A stretch of DNA of 57,128 nucleotides from Candidatus Sericytochromatia bacterium (GCA_035285865.1 JAYKHS010000012.1:1-57128); one strand, 5' to 3'. Counted from the first letter of the stretch, positions 1 through 18,142 are shown. Program-made: numbers and translations. Notes: a model not told the origin generated them from the letters alone.

Positions 1-5443
<5,443 letters not shown>

Positions 5444-5449
<6 letters not shown>

Positions 5450-6256: not shown

Positions 6257-6952
6257 GTGGTGATGGGCGTCTCGGGTCAAGCCCTGCGGGTCTGGGTCCG
6301 CTGGGTGGCGGACGCGGGTATGGCCGAAGAGGTCTTCGAGGTGGCGGCCTCCGATGGCAAGGTGCTGGATGCGGTGTGGGGTCCGGCTGGTGAGGGCGTG
6401 CATCTTGCGCAGCCCGTGAAGGGCGACTGGCCCGGCGGTGCCAGAGCAGGCCTGCATGTCAGCACCGGGGAGAGGTTGTCGGACCTCCTCGTCGCCTTGA
6501 GGCGAGCTGCCGAGGAGGCCCATGGGCGCAGTCTGACCCTGCTGCAGCGCGAGGTCGACGTGACGGAGGCCGAAGCCCTCGTCCGCCAGCGACGCGGCCA
6601 GGACCTGTTCCGCGAGCGCCTTATCCAGGTCTGGGGTGGCCGATGCGCCGTGACGGGGCTGGCCGTGCCCGAACTGCTGCGGGCCAGCCACGCCAAGCCG
6701 TGGAAGGATGCCACGGACGCCGAGCGACTGGATCCCTTCAACGGATTGCTGCTGGCGGCGCATCTGGACGCGGCATTCGACCAGGGGTTGATGGCTGTGG
6801 CCGAGGACGGAGCCCTGTTGTGGTCTCCGGCACTGGGTGATGGCGAACGTGCGTGTCTCGGGATTGCCGATGGCCTGCGGGTGGAGGGGCTGACGCCCCA
6901 GCACCAGAGGTATCTGGCCTACCACCGGGAGCGGTGTTTCAGGGGGGTATGA
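6257..6952 (+). CDS. HNH endonuclease (restriction-type HNH_2-like); true start uncertain, N-terminus possibly damaged
   Basis: C-terminal RRGQDLFRERL...CAVTG...LLRASHAKPW...RLDPFNGLLLAAHLDAAFDQG...YLAYHR is typical of this HNH family. The frame is open back to a TAA at 6197-6199 with no earlier start. Confidence 0.85.
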   Translation: MVMGVSGQALRVWVRWVADAGMAEEVFEVAASDGKVLDAVWGPAGEGVHLAQPVKGDWPGGARAGLHVSTGERLSDLLVALRRAAEEAHGRSLTLLQREVDVTEAEALVRQRRGQDLFRERLIQVWGGRCAVTGLAVPELLRASHAKPWKDATDAERLDPFNGLLLAAHLDAAFDQGLMAVAEDGALLWSPALGDGERACLGIADGLRVEGLTPQHQRYLAYHRERCFRGV

Positions 6953-8883
6953 AGGTGCACGACGCCGACATCGTGGCGCTCGATCTCGCGCTTTCCCGGT
7001 GGGAAAGGGCAGAAGGTGTTCCGGAGTGGCCTTGGGTGGACGTCGAGGCCCTGGGTTCGGGCCATCCGCTGGCGGAGCTGGCGTTGCAGAAGGCGGTGGT
7101 CAGTGGTGTCCGTCGAGATGACTGGGATCACGTGTGGATTCCGGTCACGGCGTTGTCTCCACGCTGGGTCGCAGAGCATCTGATGGAGCAGACAGAGGCC
7201 TGGGACGATCTGGTGGCGCACATCCGACCCATCGCCGACCGGGTGTGTCCCCTGCCGCAAGAGGCTTGGCTGCGGATGCTGGCCTCGAGTTTCTCATTCT
7301 CCTCCGATTGGCAGGAATGTCTTCATGATGCGCTGGTCCATGCACGGGCCAGCTCACTGGACGGGATACGTGACCGACTGCCGATTCAATCGTTCGATGT
7401 CGGCGTCAGGGGACGGCCGACGGCCGAGGCGCTGGAGCTGATCTTGGGGGCGCTGCCCGGATATTCGGTCATCTCCGAGGCGGGCCTGCCGGCTGTGATC
7501 GTCGAGGTGACGCAGGTCTCCGCGGAGACCTGGCGGCAGGCCTTGCAGGACCTTAAGGATGCCAAGCTGGGAGATCGGGACGAGACACCGAGCAAACGAA
7601 GGCTGCTCGAACTCGGTCATCATCGCGATGATCTCGAGGAACTCTGGAACAAGCTACCGGGGCCCGTCCGGCTCGAGCTTCCGACCTGTCCGGATACTGT
7701 ACGGTCCTTGGATTCGACCGTCCCGAGCAAGGTCTTGAGGTCTGTCGAGCCCTATCTCGGTGACCTTGCACGCATTCTGCCGACACTTGGAGAGTCCGGC
7801 GCGTTGCCCCTGATCGGCGGTCAGGAACTGGACTCCTTGACACTACACCGGTATCTCGAGAAGGCACTCCCGACGGCACGCCGGTTTGTTCAAGGCGCAC
7901 TCAAGGACGTCCTCCCCTTCTTCCACAGCTGGTTGAAGCAGGCCGTCCCCGGAGAGTCCGATCGCTTGCTGCTGGTGCTTGCGGAGAAGCTGTCGGGCGA
8001 ACCGACGATGGCCGAGGCGGTCGCCCTGATGCAGATTGCCGCTTTGGTACCTCCCGAAGGGATCAAGGTCCAGAGTCGGGAGCCCGTGCTGGTCTCCGTC
8101 GACGGGCCCGGCCAGTCGTGGCTGGACGAGTGGATCAGCCCCCGAGTCTCGGTGGTCCCCAAAAAGGAAACTTGGGTATCCGTGGATGAGTTCTATCGGG
8201 AAGTCACGCGCGAGGTCTTCCTGCGAAGGCCATTCCACGAAGTCGATCCTTTCTGGTCGCTGTTGGAGGATGTCTTCGTGGATGCAACTGTGACGCCTGA
8301 GATGGGTCGTCTGAAGGTTGATCTCGATGTAAGTCTCCGGCGCCTTGACCACGGAAGACAGACCTTGGTGCAGCGGGGCTACCTGAAGCACTACGAGACA
8401 TTTCGTCTTGCGGGGAATCGCATGGCCGAGATCCTGACCCATCTTGGTGAGGCCATCTCTCTGGTTGACCTGATCGAGGATGTCTGCCGACACGCGAACA
8501 TTCACAAGCCGACCAGCTCCTCCCAAGTGCGCCGGATGGTGGCATGCCTCAAGCTGCATCCCGTGAAGGAAGACCACATCAGTTGTCGGTTGGTCATGCC
8601 GCGACAGTGGCAGATTGTTCGCGTTCATCCGGACGGCCAGCCTGATTCGCTCTGGCTGTGCCCCAAGGACAAGGCGCACAGAAACAAGCGCCGGGAGTGG
8701 CCGGATGATCGCGATCGCATGGAACTTCAGTTGAATTTGTCTCGTTGGCAGGGCATGCCTGGAGCCCCGTCGGGCGGAGCAGTGGATGCACGCGTAGACG
8801 ATCTCTGGCGGCGATCCGTCGAAGCAGCCCGCGCCCTCAGTCCGGTTTCCCTGGATTCGGTTTCCACCCCCATCCGCGGCTGA
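6949..8883 (+). CDS. Hypothetical protein (644 aa, no recognisable domain)
   Basis: ATG 6949 overlaps the HNH stop (ATGA); long ORF with protein-like composition. Confidence 0.75.
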   Translation: MKVHDADIVALDLALSRWERAEGVPEWPWVDVEALGSGHPLAELALQKAVVSGVRRDDWDHVWIPVTALSPRWVAEHLMEQTEAWDDLVAHIRPIADRVCPLPQEAWLRMLASSFSFSSDWQECLHDALVHARASSLDGIRDRLPIQSFDVGVRGRPTAEALELILGALPGYSVISEAGLPAVIVEVTQVSAETWRQALQDLKDAKLGDRDETPSKRRLLELGHHRDDLEELWNKLPGPVRLELPTCPDTVRSLDSTVPSKVLRSVEPYLGDLARILPTLGESGALPLIGGQELDSLTLHRYLEKALPTARRFVQGALKDVLPFFHSWLKQAVPGESDRLLLVLAEKLSGEPTMAEAVALMQIAALVPPEGIKVQSREPVLVSVDGPGQSWLDEWISPRVSVVPKKETWVSVDEFYREVTREVFLRRPFHEVDPFWSLLEDVFVDATVTPEMGRLKVDLDVSLRRLDHGRQTLVQRGYLKHYETFRLAGNRMAEILTHLGEAISLVDLIEDVCRHANIHKPTSSSQVRRMVACLKLHPVKEDHISCRLVMPRQWQIVRVHPDGQPDSLWLCPKDKAHRNKRREWPDDRDRMELQLNLSRWQGMPGAPSGGAVDARVDDLWRRSVEAARALSPVSLDSVSTPIRG

Positions 8884-9051
8884 ACCAGAAGCCGAAGCAT
8901 GGGCGTGGGGCGGCGTGGTGTGTGCGGCTGTGCATGGGTTGTGTCACGGTGGATCGATTGGCGTCTGCTCCGGCGGCGAACCGGACCGTTGCCTGCACTC
9001 CTTTTGCCGCACTGATGGACTTGTCAGCCCCGCCTCGGTGAACGTGGATGG

Positions 9052-9954
9052 ATGCCAGCGAGCCCCCTGCACGAGGTCCTGATCGAGTTGTTGCGGCAAG
9101 TGCCCGACCAGCTCGCTCCGGCTCTGGCGCGGGCGCTTCCCGATCTGGACCCGGCCTTGCCAGTCACCTTGGTGGACGTGTCCGCATCCGAGCCCATCGT
9201 GGTCGAGCGCCGGGCGGACCTTGTCATGCTGATCGGGGAGACGGCCCGGCCTCGGCTGATTGTGGTCGTGGAGATCCAACTGGGCAGGGACAATGACAAG
9301 CTGTACTCGTGGCCGCAGTACGTGGTCGCGATGCGCCAGCGTTGGCGATGCGAGGTCGCGTTGCTCGTGATTGCGCCCGACCCCAAGGTGGCAGCCTGGG
9401 CCCGTAAGCCCATCTGCCTCGACCGGAGGGGCAGTCAGGTCGTACCGCTGGTGCTGGGCAGCGAGGACTTCCCCCGCCCGGACCTCAAGGCCTTGTCCGG
9501 CCATCCCCACGCGACGGTTTTCCACGCCTTGCTGCACTGTCGAGACCGTGGGGATTTGCCCTTGCTGGAGCAGGCGCTGATTGATGTCAAAGCGTTGCCC
9601 AACCCGGAACGGGTGGGCTACTATGAAATCCTGCGGCGTTGTCTCTCCCCGTCGTTTCTTGAGCTTGCGGAGGTGGCGATGAGCATGGAGCAAACGCGGT
9701 TCTACCAGGAGTTGGTCGAGCGCCTGAGGGCCGAAGGCAAGGCCGAGGCTGAGGCCAGGGGCGAACTGCTGGGGCGTCGCTCTCAGGCCCTTAGGGCCAT
9801 CTCCAGGCTGCTGGGCAGGCGCTTGGCCCTCCCCGGCCCTGAGGCATTGGCGAGGATGGAGACTCTGCCGTTGGAGACATTGGAACAGCTCCTTGAGGAC
9901 CTGCTGGAGTTCTCGGGACCGGAAGGCCTCGAGGATTGGTTGTCCCGGCATTGA
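9052..9954 (+). CDS. Rpn-like PD-(D/E)xK nuclease with DUF4351-like C-terminus, copy 1
   Basis: LHE...ERRADLV...VVEIQ (D...ExQ variant typical of Rpn); C-terminal EG..EG coil then LPLETLEQLLEDLLEF...LEDWL. Confidence 0.8.
   Translation: MPASPLHEVLIELLRQVPDQLAPALARALPDLDPALPVTLVDVSASEPIVVERRADLVMLIGETARPRLIVVVEIQLGRDNDKLYSWPQYVVAMRQRWRCEVALLVIAPDPKVAAWARKPICLDRRGSQVVPLVLGSEDFPRPDLKALSGHPHATVFHALLHCRDRGDLPLLEQALIDVKALPNPERVGYYEILRRCLSPSFLELAEVAMSMEQTRFYQELVERLRAEGKAEAEARGELLGRRSQALRAISRLLGRRLALPGPEALARMETLPLETLEQLLEDLLEFSGPEGLEDWLSRH
9679..9954 (+). CDS. Putative internally initiated small protein (RpnS-like antitoxin), 91 aa
   Basis: GGAGGT at 9669-9674 then in-frame ATG at 9679 (second ATG at 9685). 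Confidence 0.6.
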   Translation: MSMEQTRFYQELVERLRAEGKAEAEARGELLGRRSQALRAISRLLGRRLALPGPEALARMETLPLETLEQLLEDLLEFSGPEGLEDWLSRH

Positions 9955-10014
9955 GCTTGGGCGTTCGAGCGCATCCTTCTCGACCGCTTCCCTTGCCCCG
10001 ACAGAATCGCGTGT

Positions 10015-10036
10015 CTCGGTTGCCCGAGTTCCTTTT
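10015..10036 (+). terminator. Possible weak intrinsic terminator between Rpn-like copies (repeated at 11046-11067)
   Basis: CTCGG-TTGC-CCGAG hairpin followed by TTCCTTTT in both spacers; the stem is only 5 bp. Confidence 0.35.
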
Positions 10037-10082
10037 CCCGCACTGATGGATTTGTCAGCCCCGCCTCGGTGAACTTGGATGG

Positions 10083-10985
10083 ATGCCACCGAGCCCCCTG
10101 CACGAGGTCCTGATCGAGTTGTTGCGGCAAGTGCCCGACCAGCTCGCTCCGGCTCTGGCGCGGGCGCTTCCCGATCTGGACCCGACCCTGCCTGTGACCT
10201 TCGTGGACGGTTCGGCCTCCGAGCCCTTGGTGGTGGAGCGCCGGGCGGACCTTGTCATGCGGATCGCGGAGACGGCCCGGCCTCGGCTGATCGTGGTCGT
10301 GGAGATCCAACTGGGCAGGGACAACGACAGGCTGTTCTCGTGGCCTCAATATGTCGTGGCCATGCGCCAGCGTTGGCGATGCGAGGTCGCGTTGCTCGTG
10401 ATCGCGCCCGACCCCAAGGTGGCAGCCTGGACCCGCAAGCCCATCCGCCTCGACCAGCGCGGCAGCCAGATCGTGCCGTTGGTGTTGGGCGGTGAGGACT
10501 TCCCCCGGATGTCGCTGGTGGATCTCGCCGGCCATCCCCACGCGACGGTTTTCCACGCATTGCTGCACTGTCGGGAGCGCGAGGACTTGCCCTTGCTGGA
10601 GCAGGCGCTGAATGATGTCAAAGCGTTGCCCGACCCGGATCGGGTGGGCTACTATGAAATCCTGCGGCGCTGTCTCTCCCCGTCGTTTCTTGAGCTTGCG
10701 GAGGTGGCGATGAGCATGGAGCAAACGCGGTTCTACCAAGAGCTGGTCGAGCGTCTCAAGGCTGAAGGCGAGGCCATTGGCAAAGCCGAGGGCGAGCAGG
10801 TAGGGCGCAAGGCGCAACTGCTCAGAACGGTCACGCGTCAACTTGGCCGACGTGTCGCTCTGCCCGGCCCCGAGGCCTTGGCGATGATGGAAGCCCTGCC
10901 ATTGGAAGCTCTGGAGCAACTGGCAGAGGACCTGCTGGACTTCTCGGGACCGGAATGCCTCGAGGATTGGTTGTCCCGGCATTGA
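10083..10985 (+). CDS. Rpn-like PD-(D/E)xK nuclease with DUF4351-like C-terminus, copy 2
   Basis: Same motifs as copy 1; most divergent in the C-terminal region (GEAIGKAEGEQVGRKAQLLRTVTRQL). Confidence 0.8.
   Translation: MPPSPLHEVLIELLRQVPDQLAPALARALPDLDPTLPVTFVDGSASEPLVVERRADLVMRIAETARPRLIVVVEIQLGRDNDRLFSWPQYVVAMRQRWRCEVALLVIAPDPKVAAWTRKPIRLDQRGSQIVPLVLGGEDFPRMSLVDLAGHPHATVFHALLHCREREDLPLLEQALNDVKALPDPDRVGYYEILRRCLSPSFLELAEVAMSMEQTRFYQELVERLKAEGEAIGKAEGEQVGRKAQLLRTVTRQLGRRVALPGPEALAMMEALPLEALEQLAEDLLDFSGPECLEDWLSRH
10710..10985 (+). CDS. Putative internally initiated small protein (RpnS-like), 91 aa
   Basis: GGAGGT-GGCG-ATG conserved at the equivalent position, in frame. Confidence 0.6.
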   Translation: MSMEQTRFYQELVERLKAEGEAIGKAEGEQVGRKAQLLRTVTRQLGRRVALPGPEALAMMEALPLEALEQLAEDLLDFSGPECLEDWLSRH

Positions 10986-11113
10986 GCTTGGGCGTTCGAG
11001 CGCATCCTTCTCGACCGCTTCCATTGCCCCGACCGAATGGCGTGTCTCGGTTGCCCGAGTTCCTTTTGCCACACTGATGGACCTGTCAGCCCCGCGTCGG
11101 TGAACGTGGAGGC

Positions 11114-12052
11114 ATGGCTCCAAGCCCCCTGCACGAGGTCCTGATCGAGTTGCTGCGGCAAGTGCCGGACCAGCTCGCCCCGGCCTTGGCACGGGTGGTT
11201 CCCGGCCTGGATCCGACCCTGCCTGTCACCTTCGTGGACGCGTCCGCATCCGAGCCCGTCGTGGTGGAGCGCCGGGCGGACCTTGTCATGCTGATCGGGG
11301 AGACGGCCCGGCCTCGGCTGATCGTGATCGTGGAGATCCAACTGGGCAGGGACAACGACAAGCACTACTCATGGCCGCAGTACGTGGTCGCGATGCGGCA
11401 GCGTTGGCGATGCGAGGTCGCGTTGCTCGTCATCGCGCCCGACCCAGAGGTTGCAGCCTGGGCCCGCAAGCCCATCCGCCTAGACTGGCGGGGTAGTCAG
11501 GTCGTGCCGCTGGTGCTGGGCAGCGGGGACTTCCCCCGGATCTCGCTGGCGGACCTCGCCGGCCATCCCCACGCGACGGTTTTCCATGCCTTGCTGCACT
11601 GTCGGGATCGCGGGGATTTGCCCTTGCTGGAGCAAGCGCTGAATGATATCAAAGCGTTGCCCGACCCGGATCGAGTGGGCTACTATGAAGTCCTGCGGAG
11701 GTGTCTCTCCCCGTCGTTTCTCGGTCTTGCGGAGGTGGCGATGAGTCTGGAGCACACGCGGTTCTACCAAGAGTTGGTCGCTCGCCTGAGGGCAGAGGGT
11801 GAAGCCTTGGGCGAGGCGAGGGGCGAAGCTAGGGGCGAGGCTAAGGGCGAGGCCAAGGGCGAGCTTCAGGGCCGTAGATCGCAGGCGCTGCGGGCAATCT
11901 CTCTGCTGTCGGGCAGACGCTTTGGTCTGCCTGGTCCCGAGGCTCTGGCGAAGATGGAGGTGCTGCCGTTGGAGACGTTGGAGCAGCTTCTGGAGGACCT
12001 GCTGGATTTCACCGGACCCGAAGACCTCGAGGCTTGGCTGGCGCGGCACTGA
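11114..12052 (+). CDS. Rpn-like PD-(D/E)xK nuclease with DUF4351-like C-terminus, copy 3
   Basis: Same motifs; 12 aa longer because of GEAR/GEAK tetrapeptide expansion. Confidence 0.8.
   Translation: MAPSPLHEVLIELLRQVPDQLAPALARVVPGLDPTLPVTFVDASASEPVVVERRADLVMLIGETARPRLIVIVEIQLGRDNDKHYSWPQYVVAMRQRWRCEVALLVIAPDPEVAAWARKPIRLDWRGSQVVPLVLGSGDFPRISLADLAGHPHATVFHALLHCRDRGDLPLLEQALNDIKALPDPDRVGYYEVLRRCLSPSFLGLAEVAMSLEHTRFYQELVARLRAEGEALGEARGEARGEAKGEAKGELQGRRSQALRAISLLSGRRFGLPGPEALAKMEVLPLETLEQLLEDLLDFTGPEDLEAWLARH
11741..12052 (+). CDS. Putative internally initiated small protein (RpnS-like), 103 aa
   Basis: GGAGGT (11731-11736)-GGCG-ATG 11741, in frame; conserved although neighbouring codons differ. 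Confidence 0.6.
   Translation: MSLEHTRFYQELVARLRAEGEALGEARGEARGEAKGEAKGELQGRRSQALRAISLLSGRRFGLPGPEALAKMEVLPLETLEQLLEDLLDFTGPEDLEAWLARH
11798..11869 (+). repeat. Imperfect 12-bp coding tandem repeat (GEAL-GEAR-GEAR-GEAK-GEAK-GELQ)
   Basis: ggcgaggcgagg/ggcgaagctagg/ggcgaggctaag/ggcgaggccaag at 11810-11857. Confidence 0.9.
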
Positions 12053-12138
12053 GTCCGGCGAGCCCGGCGGCTCGCTGCACCTCGGGTTGAGGTGGATGCC
12101 GGGGCATCCGTCATGCCCGTCGGGACGGGCGCCAAGGC

Positions 12139-13461
12139 TCAGTTTGCCGCCAATGCCCGGAAGTAGTGCCCGAAGGCCTTCATGCCGCCTTGAGCCATCG
12201 GCCAATCAAAGTTCTCGTTGGGAGCGTGGTAGCCGTGCTCAGGCAGGGACAGGCCCATGAACAGCACCGGGCATGCCCATCGATTGGCCATCCGCACCAC
12301 GGCGCCGATGCTGCCGCCCTCGCGAACGAATGAAGGGGCCTTGCCGAAGGCGTGATGCAGGGCAGCCGCAAGATGCGGCAGTTGCGGCGCATCGGCCGGA
12401 CAGAGGTAGGGCTCCAGCCCCGGTCCCGACACCACCTCCACCTCGGGGTGGTGCACCGCCACGAACTCGCGAACACGTTGCATGGCGCCCTGCGCCGTCA
12501 TGTCCGGTACCAGGCGCATGCTCATCTTGGCCTCGCCCCACGGCGGGACCGCCGACTTCACGCCGGGCCCCTGGTAGCCACCGGCGAGGCCATGCAGCTC
12601 CATCGTGGGCAACGTCCAGAGCTTCTGCGTCACCGTGCGTGGGTCAAGATCGCGCAGGCTGAGGAGGCCGTGGGCCTTGCGGAATCGATCGACGTCGAAG
12701 CCGGCACGCACGAAGTCTTCGAGCGTCGCCTCGTCGGTATGCCGCACGCCGTCGTAGAATCCCGGAATCTTCACCCGGCCCGACTCGGCATCGACCATCG
12801 CCGCGATGAGTTCGGCAAGTTCGAGCAGCGGATTGCGTGCTGCACCGCCGACCAGGCCGGAGTGTGTGTCGTGGCTGGCCGTCCTGAGGTTCAGCGTGAA
12901 CGTCTGCATGCCCCTCAGGCCCAGCGGGCTCGCGGGCACGTCCCGAGAAATCCAGATGGTGTCGGATACCAGAACGGAGTCGAAGGGTCCCGGAATTCCG
13001 GCGAGGGCCTCATCGAAATTGGGACTGCCGATTTCTTCCTCGAACTCCCAGATGAAGTGGATGTCGAGGGGGACGCCCGCCTCGTGGGCCTCGGCTGCCG
13101 CGAAGAGCGCCGCAAGGGCCGGTCCCTTGTCATCGGTGGCACCGCGTCCGTGCCAGGTGTCGCCCACTTCGGTCAGCACGAAGGGGTCCGTGCGCCATTC
13201 CGGTTCATTGGCCGGCTGGACATCCATGTGGTTGTAGATGGCGATGGCCCGGGTGGCGCCCTCGGCCTTGAATACTCCGTGCACCGTCGGCCAGCCGGCC
13301 GTACGCATCACGGTCGCCTGTCCGCCAAGGGCTCTGATGGTTGCAGCCGCCCACTCTGCGCCCTGCTCGATGTCCTTGGCCCTTCCCGGGTCCATGCTCA
13401 CGGTCGGAATCCCGACGCCCTCGGCAAGAAGGCTGCGGAAGCGTTCGCGGTCAACGGTCAT
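12139..13461 (-). CDS. M20 family metallopeptidase (dipeptidase/ArgE-DapE-like)
   Basis: YNHMDVQP, GRGATDDKG, EFEEEIGS, HSG, HAPNE motifs. Confidence 0.93.
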   Translation of the reverse strand: MTVDRERFRSLLAEGVGIPTVSMDPGRAKDIEQGAEWAAATIRALGGQATVMRTAGWPTVHGVFKAEGATRAIAIYNHMDVQPANEPEWRTDPFVLTEVGDTWHGRGATDDKGPALAALFAAAEAHEAGVPLDIHFIWEFEEEIGSPNFDEALAGIPGPFDSVLVSDTIWISRDVPASPLGLRGMQTFTLNLRTASHDTHSGLVGGAARNPLLELAELIAAMVDAESGRVKIPGFYDGVRHTDEATLEDFVRAGFDVDRFRKAHGLLSLRDLDPRTVTQKLWTLPTMELHGLAGGYQGPGVKSAVPPWGEAKMSMRLVPDMTAQGAMQRVREFVAVHHPEVEVVSGPGLEPYLCPADAPQLPHLAAALHHAFGKAPSFVREGGSIGAVVRMANRWACPVLFMGLSLPEHGYHAPNENFDWPMAQGGMKAFGHYFRALAAN

Positions 13462-15820: not shown

Positions 15821-17155
15821 TCAGAAGCCGGCAGGGCTGGAGAAGTGCATGCGCGGCAGGCGCATCGCCGGGGCGAGGGACGTACCCTCCCAGAAGGCCG
15901 CGGCCCACTCCCTGTCTCGGGATAGGGCGTCGATGCTGCCCAACATCTGGATCAGGGAGTCCGTGAAGCGCATGTTCTCGACCGGATAGGCGATCTCGCC
16001 CTTCTCGACCCAGAATGTACCGCTGCGCGTCATGCCGGTGACGGACAGGTCCATGCGATCCACGACATTCAGGTAGTGCAACTGCGTCACGAGCAGGCCC
16101 TTGTCCAGGCCGCGCACGAGGTCTTCGTCCCGGACGACGCCGGGGGAGACGACCAGATGGGAGGCATAGGCTCCGTAGGGATTGGGGGCAGGGCCACCAT
16201 GTCCTGTCGGTGCCACGCCTGCCCTGGCGGCCGTGGCCCGGTCATGGACCAGGCCCGTGAACCGACCGGCGTCGATCAGGGGGACTCGCTGCCGCGGAAC
16301 ACCCTCGTAGTCGAAGGGCAAGCCCGGAACCTCGACGATGTCGTCGACGATGGTCAGCTTGGGGTCGAAGAACTGTTCGCCCATCCTGTCGAGCGCGAAA
16401 TGTCGGCCTTCCAGATAATCGAGGGCATTGAAGGCCATCCACGGGAACATCCGCACGAGGTCGGCCACGGCGGCCGCTTCGAGGACGACCGGATAGTGGC
16501 CTGGCGGCAGCGGCCGGTGGTGCCGGCTGGCCAGCGCCTTGCGCACGGCCCGCTGTGCCACGGCTTCGGCATCGATCAGGTCGGGGTTGCTGACGACCTG
16601 CTTGGCCCAGCCGGAACCGTCGTCCTTGTCTGCCGTGACGGAGTATTCGCAGCGCTGCGTCGTCGCATCCGCGTGCACGCCCCTGCTGTTCAGGATGACG
16701 ACGCGCGTGCGGGTCTGGGCCGAGATGCCCGCCGCCCGGGCACCTGCTTCGAGACAGAGGCGAACCGCAAGACCGGCCTGCGCCGCCCGGTCTTCGGGCG
16801 AGCCGTCTCGCATGCCACGATCCGGTTGCGTGCGGTAGGTCTGCGGTCCCTCGAGCATGGTCATCATGGCCGGATCCGGGTCCTGCAGGGCTGCCAGGCT
16901 CATCGCATCCTCGATCGCCTGACGGATGCCCCGATCATGCAACTGGGTGGTATCCACCCGGGCCTCACGGCCCTGATGCTGGACCCGGATCGAGAGGCTG
17001 CGCACCTGCTTGGCCACATTCTGCGTGATGGCGTTGTCGCCGAAGCGGGTCAGTTCCTCGCGGGAGTCCGTCAGGATGAACTCGGTCGCCTCCGCGGGCG
17101 AGGACGCAAGGGCCGCCTCGAGCGTGGCAGTCAGGTCCGGCGAGGTCACGGGCAT
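15821..17155 (-). CDS. tldE: TldE/PmbA family protein
   Basis: LTRFGDNAITQN, PPGHYPVVLE, FDYEGVP, TGMTRSG, NMRFTDS; no HExxxH; adjacent to tldD; GGAGG precedes ATG 17155. Confidence 0.88.
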   Translation of the reverse strand: MPVTSPDLTATLEAALASSPAEATEFILTDSREELTRFGDNAITQNVAKQVRSLSIRVQHQGREARVDTTQLHDRGIRQAIEDAMSLAALQDPDPAMMTMLEGPQTYRTQPDRGMRDGSPEDRAAQAGLAVRLCLEAGARAAGISAQTRTRVVILNSRGVHADATTQRCEYSVTADKDDGSGWAKQVVSNPDLIDAEAVAQRAVRKALASRHHRPLPPGHYPVVLEAAAVADLVRMFPWMAFNALDYLEGRHFALDRMGEQFFDPKLTIVDDIVEVPGLPFDYEGVPRQRVPLIDAGRFTGLVHDRATAARAGVAPTGHGGPAPNPYGAYASHLVVSPGVVRDEDLVRGLDKGLLVTQLHYLNVVDRMDLSVTGMTRSGTFWVEKGEIAYPVENMRFTDSLIQMLGSIDALSRDREWAAAFWEGTSLAPAMRLPRMHFSSPAGF

Positions 17156-17206
17156 GGAATCGGCCTCCGATGAGCAGGCGTCCATGGTACCGGATCGCGA
17201 CCCGAC

Positions 17207-18142
17207 TCAAGGGGTCGGCGGCCAGAGAAAACTCAGGGCGCGGGGCAGGCGCGCGGCCCAGCAGGCCTCATTGTGGATGCCGGTGGGATCCTCGATCCAG
17301 AGCAGGTCTTCTCCGGCGGTGAAGCCGACCGAGACGAGCAGCTCCTTCATGATGCGGGCATCGCGCAGCAGCCGGGTGCCCGGGCCCGCGCGCATCTCGC
17401 GCCCGCCGAAGTCGAGGTAGACCCGCGAGCCCTTCGGCTGGGTGGCTGCGGCCGCAACGTGGTCGAAGATCGCGCCACGCGCGAACCAGAGCGAGGGCGA
17501 CATCACGAGGGCGCGACCGAAGGCGTCCGGGCGACGGAACAGGGCATAGAGTGCCGTCAGGCCACCCATGGACGATCCGCCGATGCCGGTGTTCGCCGGG
17601 CCCGTCAGCGTCAGGAATCGGTGGTTGATCTCGTCGGCGAGCCCCCCCGCAACCCAGTCGATGAACTTGTCTCCCTCGCCCGTGCAGCCGTAATGGGCAT
17701 CGGGCCAAGGGCTCTGCTCGCTGATGCGGTGGCCTTCGCCGTTGTAGATCCCGACCATGATGCCGGGTGTGAACGCGCCTTCGGCCGTCAGGCGATCGAC
17801 CGTCAGGTCGACCTCCCAGTCACCGGAAAAGGAGGTGTAGGGGTCGAAGAGGTTCTGCCCGTCGAAGAGGTACGTCACCGGATAGCGCGTGCTGCCCTTG
17901 GGGTCATAACCGGGCGGCAGGTAGACCGCCACGGTACGGGTTCGGCCCAGCGAGGGAATCTGCAGCGGGCCAAGCAGCATGAGCCGTCCGCGTCGACGCG
18001 GACGACCCGGCGGGTCCAACTGGACGGTGCGACTGGGAGACTTCAAGGACTGACCTTCGTGGACGTCGGCATCATACCCGGCAGGCATCGGGCATGACGT
18101 GCGCTTTACGATTCCTTGCGAACCGTGTTTTCCTGCAGCCAC
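17207..18142 (-). CDS. Alpha/beta-hydrolase esterase (start uncertain, probably downstream of 18142)
   Basis: VYLPPGY, YLFDGQNLF, GGSSMGG nucleophile elbow, HNEACW. Confidence 0.88.
   Translation of the reverse strand: MAAGKHGSQGIVKRTSCPMPAGYDADVHEGQSLKSPSRTVQLDPPGRPRRRGRLMLLGPLQIPSLGRTRTVAVYLPPGYDPKGSTRYPVTYLFDGQNLFDPYTSFSGDWEVDLTVDRLTAEGAFTPGIMVGIYNGEGHRISEQSPWPDAHYGCTGEGDKFIDWVAGGLADEINHRFLTLTGPANTGIGGSSMGGLTALYALFRRPDAFGRALVMSPSLWFARGAIFDHVAAAATQPKGSRVYLDFGGREMRAGPGTRLLRDARIMKELLVSVGFTAGEDLLWIEDPTGIHNEACWAARLPRALSFLWPPTP

Follow-up and report, generated by a model that had tools for sequence, protein, structure and literature searches.

The closest known counterparts of the genes treated here are the rpn genes of Escherichia coli, in which a small protein made from an internal start, RpnS, specifically blocks the toxic nuclease RpnL (Zhong et al., 2023; PMC10400941). 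We analyzed a stretch of 57,128 nucleotides (nt) from a Candidatus Sericytochromatia bacterium (GCA_035285865.1 JAYKHS010000012.1:1-57128; hereafter the window), in which positions 9,052 to 12,052 hold three tandem Rpn-like genes, each with an in-frame internal ATG behind a Shine-Dalgarno (SD) sequence. The full-length product is called L and the predicted product of the internal start S.

According to Zhong et al. (2023), the S form blocks the L form in every Rpn pair assayed (RpnA, RpnB, RpnC, and RpnP2). The internal start of RpnA, which has a Glu three codons before its Met, was abolished by the combined substitutions K240R, E241D, and M244L. In some species RpnS is annotated as DUF4351, and the small gene can also exist as a free-standing copy. 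The first long helix of RpnS contains 4-amino acid (aa) repeats that begin 8–20 residues past the Met, and their number, which varies among strains, sets cognate recognition (Zhong et al., 2023); a commentary suggests that this variation prevents inhibition in trans among paralogs (PMC10400984). It is also reported that rpn arrays arise by tandem duplication, that rpn genes cluster with defense genes, that the internal start is conserved beyond E. coli, and that RpnS is related to motifs of the helix-turn-helix (HTH) type by HHpred; Cas10d/Cas11d is cited as a complementary gene-within-gene pair, and transposition is argued against (PMC10400941). The principle, its breadth, the identity of DUF4351 with RpnS, the repeats, the tandem arrays, and the avoidance of cross-inhibition by paralogs are already known from these two sources. 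What the window adds is new but modest: a divergent clade that follows the Rpn rule, a footprint of it in synonymous codons, and a sharp boundary between a homogenized nuclease and start and divergent interface helices.

Probable internal start sites and their conservation

The plus strand of the window contains three head-to-tail open reading frames (ORFs) with a start-to-start distance of exactly 1031 nt. At the protein level, copy 1 shares 85% identity with copy 2 and likewise with copy 3. Within each ORF, the string GGAGGTGGCG (9669-9678, 10700-10709, and 11731-11740) is followed immediately by an ATG (9679, 10710, and 11741), which is in frame and is codon 210 in all three copies. The assembly of the window has no 16S gene, and the 16S tail used for pairing was taken from a genome of the same genus, ending ...GGATCACCTCCTTTCT. 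With this tail, the predicted anti-SD pairing at the internal site was -14.4 kcal/mol. The best pairing in the 30 nt before the full-length start was -7.8 kcal/mol in copies 1 and 2 and -9.3 kcal/mol in copy 3, where the distance to the ATG is only 1 nt. Across the gene and the 30 nt upstream, no place in copies 1 and 2 pairs more strongly than the internal site, and only 0.47% of sampled coding 10-mers reached -11 kcal/mol. An earlier note on this DNA, made from the sequence alone, had described these sites as stronger than those at the full-length starts, as they proved to be; its coordinates, frame, codon position, and product sizes of 91–103 aa were all correct.

Chance estimates were made with a crude codon-usage gene set of the same genome (1,909 genes; genome G+C 66.9%). 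GGAGGT occurred 4–9 nt before 26 of the 13,132 in-frame internal ATGs, in 25 of the 1,909 genes, four of which belong to the Rpn-like family; the motif is rare in the genome, not unique. Of 1,906 crude starts, 164 (8.6%) had GGAGG within the preceding 20 nt, vs 114 of 5,727 internal control positions (2.0%), and this organism therefore uses SD-led initiation. Because the motif is shared by descent, the three copies represent one event and count once; its weight comes from conservation in other genomes. RNA folding of the 81 nt around each internal start revealed no special structure (z-scores 0.39, 1.44, and 0.01); in the minimum free energy fold the SD is paired with an upstream CUCUCC.

A profile search of 1.84 billion representatives returned 15,948 clusters with E <= 1e-3; at E <= 1e-30 there were 1,864, which are 50%-identity clusters. 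Close relatives are confined to the genus and order of this bacterium (going by source names, Candidatus Sericytochromatia). Conservation of the SD and Met in homologues, which the earlier note had proposed as a check, held at the nucleotide level. In the close family, all 27 distinct copies (36–100% aa identity, drawn from six genomes that belong to this genus or order) had ATG at the codon aligned with M210 and GAG at codon -3. The SD core was GGAGGT, CGAGGT, or AGAGGT, despite varying residues (AEVAM, PEVAM, PEADM, LEVDM, PEVKM, and PEVQM).

A second and much larger branch was represented by 71 loci in Actinomycetota, Myxococcota, and others. Among 57 copies of this distant family, the codon aligned with M210 was ATG in 48, GTG in four, and another in five, and all four Val residues at the start position used GTG. 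The synonymous codons upstream followed the SD. Leu at -4 was CTG in 28 copies and TTG in 20, never CTC or CTT, so that the codon ended in G in 48/48 cases vs a gene background of 57.6%. Glu at -3 was GAG in 49/49 (background 75%), and a codon beginning with G stood at -2 in 48/57 (background 46%), where it encoded A, E, G, or D, chemically unlike residues that all have G-first codons. Leu at -1, which served as a control, was background-like (CTC 12, CTT 4, CTG 17, TTG 4, and CTA 1; 21/38 ending in G). The switching between CTG and TTG without any loss of the final G shows, as far as codon comparison goes, that the -4 site has mutated and was then filtered.

A free-standing small gene was found in Nocardia concava, where a full gene (1501-2364) is followed directly by a 109-aa ORF (2365-2694) that starts at the homologous Met. 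Database small proteins that begin at this Met (P0185-P0188, P0192, and P0194) were not counted as free-standing, several of them coming from contig edges or a broken copy. In another genome of the same genus, one copy (contig 9: 131148-132068) has in-frame TGA and TAG codons in the nuclease part, and its tail frame is open from the internal Met; it may be a natural remnant that encodes S only. A 63-aa DUF4351-like frame on contig 3 of the window's genome (35120-35260, plus strand), similar to residues 252-298 and lacking a start codon, was set aside as a probable remnant.

The signature in synonymous codons (an SD-forming third base fixed at -4, GAG at -3, a G-first codon at -2, and a neighboring Leu as control) offers a cheap way of finding nested starts without ribosome profiling. 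For annotation, a second coding sequence is due in each of these genes.

Protein fold, variable repeats, and the predicted complex

The only Pfam match of the three array proteins was DUF4351 (PF14261), at residues 241-297 (E 1e-8 to 2e-10; 35–41 bits, above the curated cut-off of 25); the tail had been called DUF4351-like in the earlier note, and Zhong et al. (2023) equate this domain with RpnS. An AlphaFold2 model built from a 27-row alignment (predicted local distance difference test, pLDDT, 82.7; predicted template modeling score 0.66) consists of an alpha/beta N-domain, a helical middle, a long helix (212-257), and three short helices. M210 lies in the least confident stretch (201-240, pLDDT 55–68), at the start of the long helix. 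Residues 6-136 of the model were matched by VIA-align with the NucS nuclease (2vld_B, Z 9.2, root-mean-square deviation 2.8, 102 aligned), and further with AF1548, SdaI, R.BspD6I, BsaWI, McrC, FokI, and Can2 (Z 5.7–7.2). On this model, the N-domain is of the PD-(D/E)XK nuclease fold class. Foldseek gave no match against the PDB at E <= 0.001, and a PDB sequence search with the family profile gave 0 matches. The RpnA-S structure (7th0) was absent among the VIA rows listed for the tail, which leaves room for such a likeness.

The catalytic motif D56...E74-x-Q76, noticed from the sequence alone as D...ExQ in a nuclease-like domain, is present in all three copies. Among 148 of the best cluster representatives, D56 and E74 were kept in 148/148, Q76 in 147/148, and K83, the candidate catalytic lysine after E74-x-Q76, in 146/148. 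Codon 83 encodes Lys in copies 1 and 3 and Arg in copy 2 (10329-10331). Comparison by hhalign with E. coli RpnA, RpnB, RpnC, and RpnE gave weak alignments that were colinear over 237–265 columns, with D56 aligned to D63 and E74-x-Q76 to E82-x-Q84; with a deeper alignment of 86 members, LE-x-LM was also aligned with KE-x-LM. By sequence, the clade is Rpn-like in architecture and in the order of its motifs, yet outside the curated membership models. It is a divergent and large clade, unnamed by Pfam, NCBIfam, and PADLOC.

The tail is variable, as the earlier note had it, and the variable part within it is the long helix. Its 4-aa (12-nt) repeats begin at A227, 17 residues past M210, and copy 3 has three units more than copies 1 and 2. 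Changes of one unit were seen in contigs from two other samples: a 12-nt deletion at 11828 in run X2, and a 12-nt insertion at 10783-10789 in run X4, from a third sample. Near-identical database proteins also differ by two units (P0192 vs P0194, and P0186 vs P0188). Residues 212-226, ahead of the variable repeats, are strongly kept in the wider family (Y215 in 99/148, S219 in 120/148, and F221 in 101/148). The repeats, of the form xAEG, draw spurious NCBIfam matches to FliH (flagellar assembly) in 20/86 members and are a likely source of mis-annotation.

The copies shared 89–90% of their nucleotides over nt 1-660, and copies 1 and 2 were 100% identical across the internal start; the identity dropped to 50–57% at nt 690-760 (aa ~230-253) and was 67–77% over nt 661-903 overall. 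The synonymous divergence (dS) was 0.19–0.37 in the first 209 codons vs 0.9–1.8 past M210. The ratio of nonsynonymous to synonymous divergence (dN/dS) of the S part was 0.11–0.15, with no positive selection over the segment as a whole. From these dS and dN/dS values, the variable tail is therefore older or imported and under purifying selection, not fast-evolving. By sequence comparison, the front half appears homogenized together with the spacers and the internal start, and the break between the two regimes falls at the 12-nt repeats.

The full-length copy 2 protein was also modeled in complex with its S part (residues 210-300). It scored 0.74 vs 0.42 for the best of three controls, a pass that may owe something to likeness to the solved RpnA-S dimer 7th0. 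The mark for such a pass was reached by 116/157 solved complexes and 2/215 mismatched pairs, a calibration that is only rough here, a custom alignment having been used. Three runs shared at least 98% of their contacts, with a partner pLDDT of at least 87. S is predicted to bind L with residues ~221-257 of the two chains packed in register. That stretch is the hypervariable one, and the variable part of the tail is thus placed at the modeled interface. In the same model, residues 212-226 contact helices 185-193 of the long form.

Weighing the explanations

We consider it probable that the internal site is a start and that S binds and inhibits L. Initiation at this site is likely, to judge from the nucleotide-level conservation and from the positional match to the proven RpnA site (K240-E241-x-x-M244). 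Each gene encodes an L protein of PD-(D/E)XK fold with a DUF4351 tail and would then also yield, from GGAGGTG-N3-ATG at codon 210, a separate S protein of 91–103 aa. According to the model, S would bind the long helix of L and keep the nuclease inactive, as RpnS does with RpnL in E. coli; a weak SD at the L start and a strong one at the S start would favor an excess of antitoxin. Because the helix and repeat segment (aa ~221-255) has diverged beside a nuclease part that is ~90% identical, each L would have its own matching S. By homology with Rpn, L would be toxic, S would neutralize it, phage infection would lead to its release, and the copies would not cross-react. Phage defense, suggested by homology and partial context, is a weaker proposal than initiation and inhibition. 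The sequence comparisons support the gene-within-gene reading put forward in the earlier note, whose predictions at the sequence level were all borne out. A wider idea, which we offer tentatively and would not call probable, is that RNA-level selection may maintain a nested antitoxin start throughout the clade (Sericytochromatia, Actinomycetota, and Myxococcota), and that the 12-nt repeats may be a recombination joint at which S/helix cassettes are swapped, yielding a bank of non-cross-reacting modules.

Several observations weigh against the reading of a nested antitoxin. The organism is known from metagenomes only, and no RNA run was listed among the runs that carry the locus. Copy 3 has two extra GGAGGTG strings inside its ORF (11697 and 11956), and this heptamer can arise from coding. 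The naive binomial values for codon use at the SD site (~3e-12 and 9e-7) are overstated, related sequences being treated as independent. The anti-SD pairing predicted for the site in the Actinomycetota group was unexceptional (median -9.3), most genes having several places with equal or stronger pairing; pairing energy was non-discriminating as a ranking in this group and was dropped. The homology of the N-domain to Rpn is weak: the hhalign matches had probabilities of 19% and 28% (E 1.3e-3 and 6e-4), and PF04754 (Transposase_31/YhgA-like), which matches the E. coli Rpn proteins at E 1e-87 to 1e-91, had no match at E <= 1 in the three paralogs or in any of the 27 members. The Rpn family model TIGR01784 matched 0/3 window paralogs, and at E <= 0.1 it matched 20/86 members (best E 4.2e-4), matches that we judged to be sub-threshold with the curated cut-off not read. 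Scans of the three array proteins with NCBIfam and PADLOC gave no match. The nuclease of copy 2, with its Arg at codon 83, may be altered or inactive. The purifying selection on the S part and the possible debt of the complex model to 7th0, both described above, belong here as well. Finally, a scan of 8700-12300 for sigma-70-like promoters found 0 sites, so that no internal promoter was found; shuffles gave 0.2, and the scan is therefore uninformative on this point.

A first rival is that each gene makes one protein, that E207 and M210 are kept for the sake of the full-length product, and that the SD-like string is a by-product of coding at 67% G+C. Residue conservation could be read in this way: among the 148 representatives, position 210 is M in 118, V in 19, and L in 7, an exchange typical of a hydrophobic site, and E207 is Glu in 137. 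GGAGG also stands 4–9 nt before in-frame internal ATGs 106 times in the crude gene set of the genome, and the extra heptamers of copy 3 and the lack of a listed RNA run fit this rival too. However, it does not account for synonymous sites that are fixed in their SD-forming state while the neighboring Leu is free, or for a -2 residue that varies among A, E, G, and D and yet keeps a G-first codon. The use of GTG by 4/4 Val at the start position and the free-standing gene that begins at the homologous Met point in the same direction. In E. coli RpnA, initiation at the corresponding Met has been proven (PMC10400941), and M210 falls in the least confident, probably flexible, stretch of the model. 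We regard a single product as unlikely.

It is likewise improbable, in our view, that S is made and is not an antitoxin, acting instead, like Cas11d from within cas10d, as a partner or regulator (a subunit required for DNA recognition or an HTH-like autorepressor). The relatedness of RpnS to HTH motifs and the Cas10d/Cas11d precedent (PMC10400941) would suit such a role, the complex model shows binding and is silent on inhibition, and the well-kept Y215, S219, and F221 past the Met suggest a function of their own. Against this, RpnA, RpnB, RpnC, and RpnP2 all show S blocking L (Zhong et al., 2023; PMC10400941), and the variation in repeat length that governs cognate inhibition in Rpn is also present in the window family.

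Two further explanations have far less to recommend them than a nested antitoxin start. A translational pause that aids stepwise folding of the domains, with the ATG irrelevant, would agree with a site at a domain boundary, but it leaves the ATG or GTG at a fixed distance of 5–6 nt and the free-standing gene unexplained, and we think it very improbable. Least credible is a decaying cluster of transposase-like mobile elements with no cellular role: some relatives bear names such as "predicted transposase", many copies are found where contigs end, and in-frame stops interrupt one relative, but all three ORFs are intact (dN/dS 0.1–0.45) with their catalytic residues retained, the direct repeats in the array region are only the 1031-nt duplication unit itself and short 9–24-nt tandem repeats (inverted repeats were not searched), and Zhong et al. 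(2023; PMC10400941) argue against transposition of Rpn.

The array, its surroundings, and known systems

The coordinates of the array and of its upstream neighbors are listed in Table 1. Tandem duplication of a 1031-nt unit gave rise to the array, whose two spacers are 91% identical to each other. About 58 nt before each start (8995-9051, 10026-10082, and 11057-11113) are kept in all three units, that of copy 1 included; this stretch contains TTGTCA ~33 nt ahead of the ATG and has no good -10 box. It is conceivable that the L mRNA has a promoter very near the start or is leaderless.

Table 1. Positions of the array components and neighboring genes in the window (aa, amino acids; nt, nucleotides; SD, Shine-Dalgarno)
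Feature	Position	Strand	Remark
Genes of a type I restriction-modification system: hsdR, truncated at the edge of the window; hsdS; hsdM, with an N-terminal HTH	1-5449	-	upstream of the array
ORF with HNH_2 endonuclease domain	6257-6952	+	domain match
676-aa ORF	6853-8883	+	no Pfam or PADLOC match; overlaps HNH_2 ORF
Copy 1, L form, 300 aa	9052-9954	+	PD-(D/E)XK N-domain, helical middle, DUF4351 tail
Copy 1, internal SD GGAGGTG	9669-9675	+	5 nt (from GGAGG) ahead of ATG 9679
Copy 1, predicted nested S form, 91 aa	9679-9954	+	DUF4351 E 1.2e-9 for the piece alone
Spacer 1-2, 128 nt	9955-10082	+	short hairpin and T-run at 10015-10028
Copy 2, L form, 300 aa	10083-10985	+	R in place of near-invariant K83
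Copy 2, internal SD GGAGGTG	10700-10706	+	16S pairing
Copy 2, predicted nested S form, 91 aa	10710-10985	+	in-frame internal ATG
Spacer 2-3, 128 nt	10986-11113	+	hairpin and T-run at 11046-11059
Copy 3, L form, 312 aa	11114-12052	+	Rpn-like ORF
Copy 3, internal SD GGAGGTG	11731-11737	+	16S pairing
Copy 3, predicted nested S form, 103 aa	11741-12052	+	in-frame internal ATG
Copy 3, 12-nt tandem repeat, 4.6 units	11809-11863	+	encodes 4-aa repeats

Further copies, at least one of them full-length, occur in the same genome. Contig 32 carries a full copy (16698-17633, minus strand; 74% identical) with an adjoining copy cut by the contig end (17764-18165, minus strand), and another cut copy lies at the end of contig 14 (2-652, minus strand). 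Many family copies in related genomes are likewise at contig ends; because arrays break assemblies in this way, copy numbers are underestimates. Logan contigs from the run that is the probable source are short unitigs, and no single one spans the array. In run X3, another freshwater sample, a contig joins 9876 to 11992, skipping 2115 nt of the array, with 17 other letters at the joint; this suggests related strains with fewer copies or with a chimeric copy.

The defense island of the earlier note was borne out on one side only. Upstream of the array are the type I restriction-modification system and the HNH gene, whereas downstream there are genes for an M20 peptidase and TldD/PmbA, which are housekeeping peptidases. 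Residues 11-66 of the HsdM protein (3614-5449, minus strand) form an N-terminal HTH_3/HTH_31 domain; the fusion is unusual and is reminiscent of a control protein. The 676-aa ORF and the HNH_2 ORF, located between the restriction-modification system and the array, may be a further pair of defense genes. In the flanks of homologues, 108 of the 129 listed ORFs were given to PADLOC; 15 of these 108, in 14 of 55 loci, matched a model at E <= 1e-5, a raw count with no background set. The matches include IetS, PDC-S27, a type IV restriction endonuclease, a TIR protein, and a GajB-like helicase.

The window would extend the gene-within-gene principle of RpnL and RpnS to a clade that Pfam, NCBIfam, and PADLOC leave unnamed and whose members are plentiful in Actinomycetota, Myxococcota, and the non-photosynthetic bacteria related to cyanobacteria. 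The array, in which a common nuclease scaffold is combined with three differing interface helices, is also a natural set for testing cognate specificity.

Of the known systems, the E. coli proteins RpnA-E and the plasmid-borne RpnP2 are the most similar. They share a length of ~290–300 aa and an N-terminal PD-(D/E)XK domain in which H-(D/E), close to the N-terminus, is followed by D and then by E-x-Q. As in RpnA, the internal SD has as its core a GAG codon, which encodes the Glu three codons ahead of the Met (K240-E241-S-L-M244 in RpnA; A-E207-V-A-M210 in the window). A small helical C-terminal module whose long first helix carries 4-aa/12-nt repeats in variable number, the tandem arrays, and the proximity to defense genes are also common to both. 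Unlike Rpn, the N-domain of the window proteins is missed by PF04754 and only weakly matched by TIGR01784, and the tail matches DUF4351, which none of the four E. coli Rpn tails tested did. The S form of RpnA has 49 aa, whereas those of the window have 91–103 aa with 17 residues ahead of the repeats, and the window system is known from sequence only.

The N. concava locus, a full gene plus a 109-aa ORF, resembles the rpnE-ypaA pair, in which RpnE-Ss is encoded by a free-standing small gene. The window array differs from that pair in having no free-standing small gene, the sole DUF4351-like fragment elsewhere in the genome (contig 3) being startless.

Cyanobacterial DUF2887-DUF4351 proteins (PF11103 and PF14261) come from the same phylum and have the same length and C-terminal module. 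Aligned to the window protein, they become similar from query residue ~207-213 on, which is the position of M210, and several of them have E-V-E-x-M with GGAGGT before the ATG (seen by eye, uncounted). In contrast, their N-domain is of another family: PF11103 had no match at E <= 1 in the window proteins, and only the weak relatives P0030-P0035 carry it. The Cas10d/Cas11d pair of type I-D CRISPR systems is similar in that a small C-terminal product of an internal start binds a complex that includes the long form; however, Cas11d is an activating partner and not an inhibitor, and its fold is unrelated.

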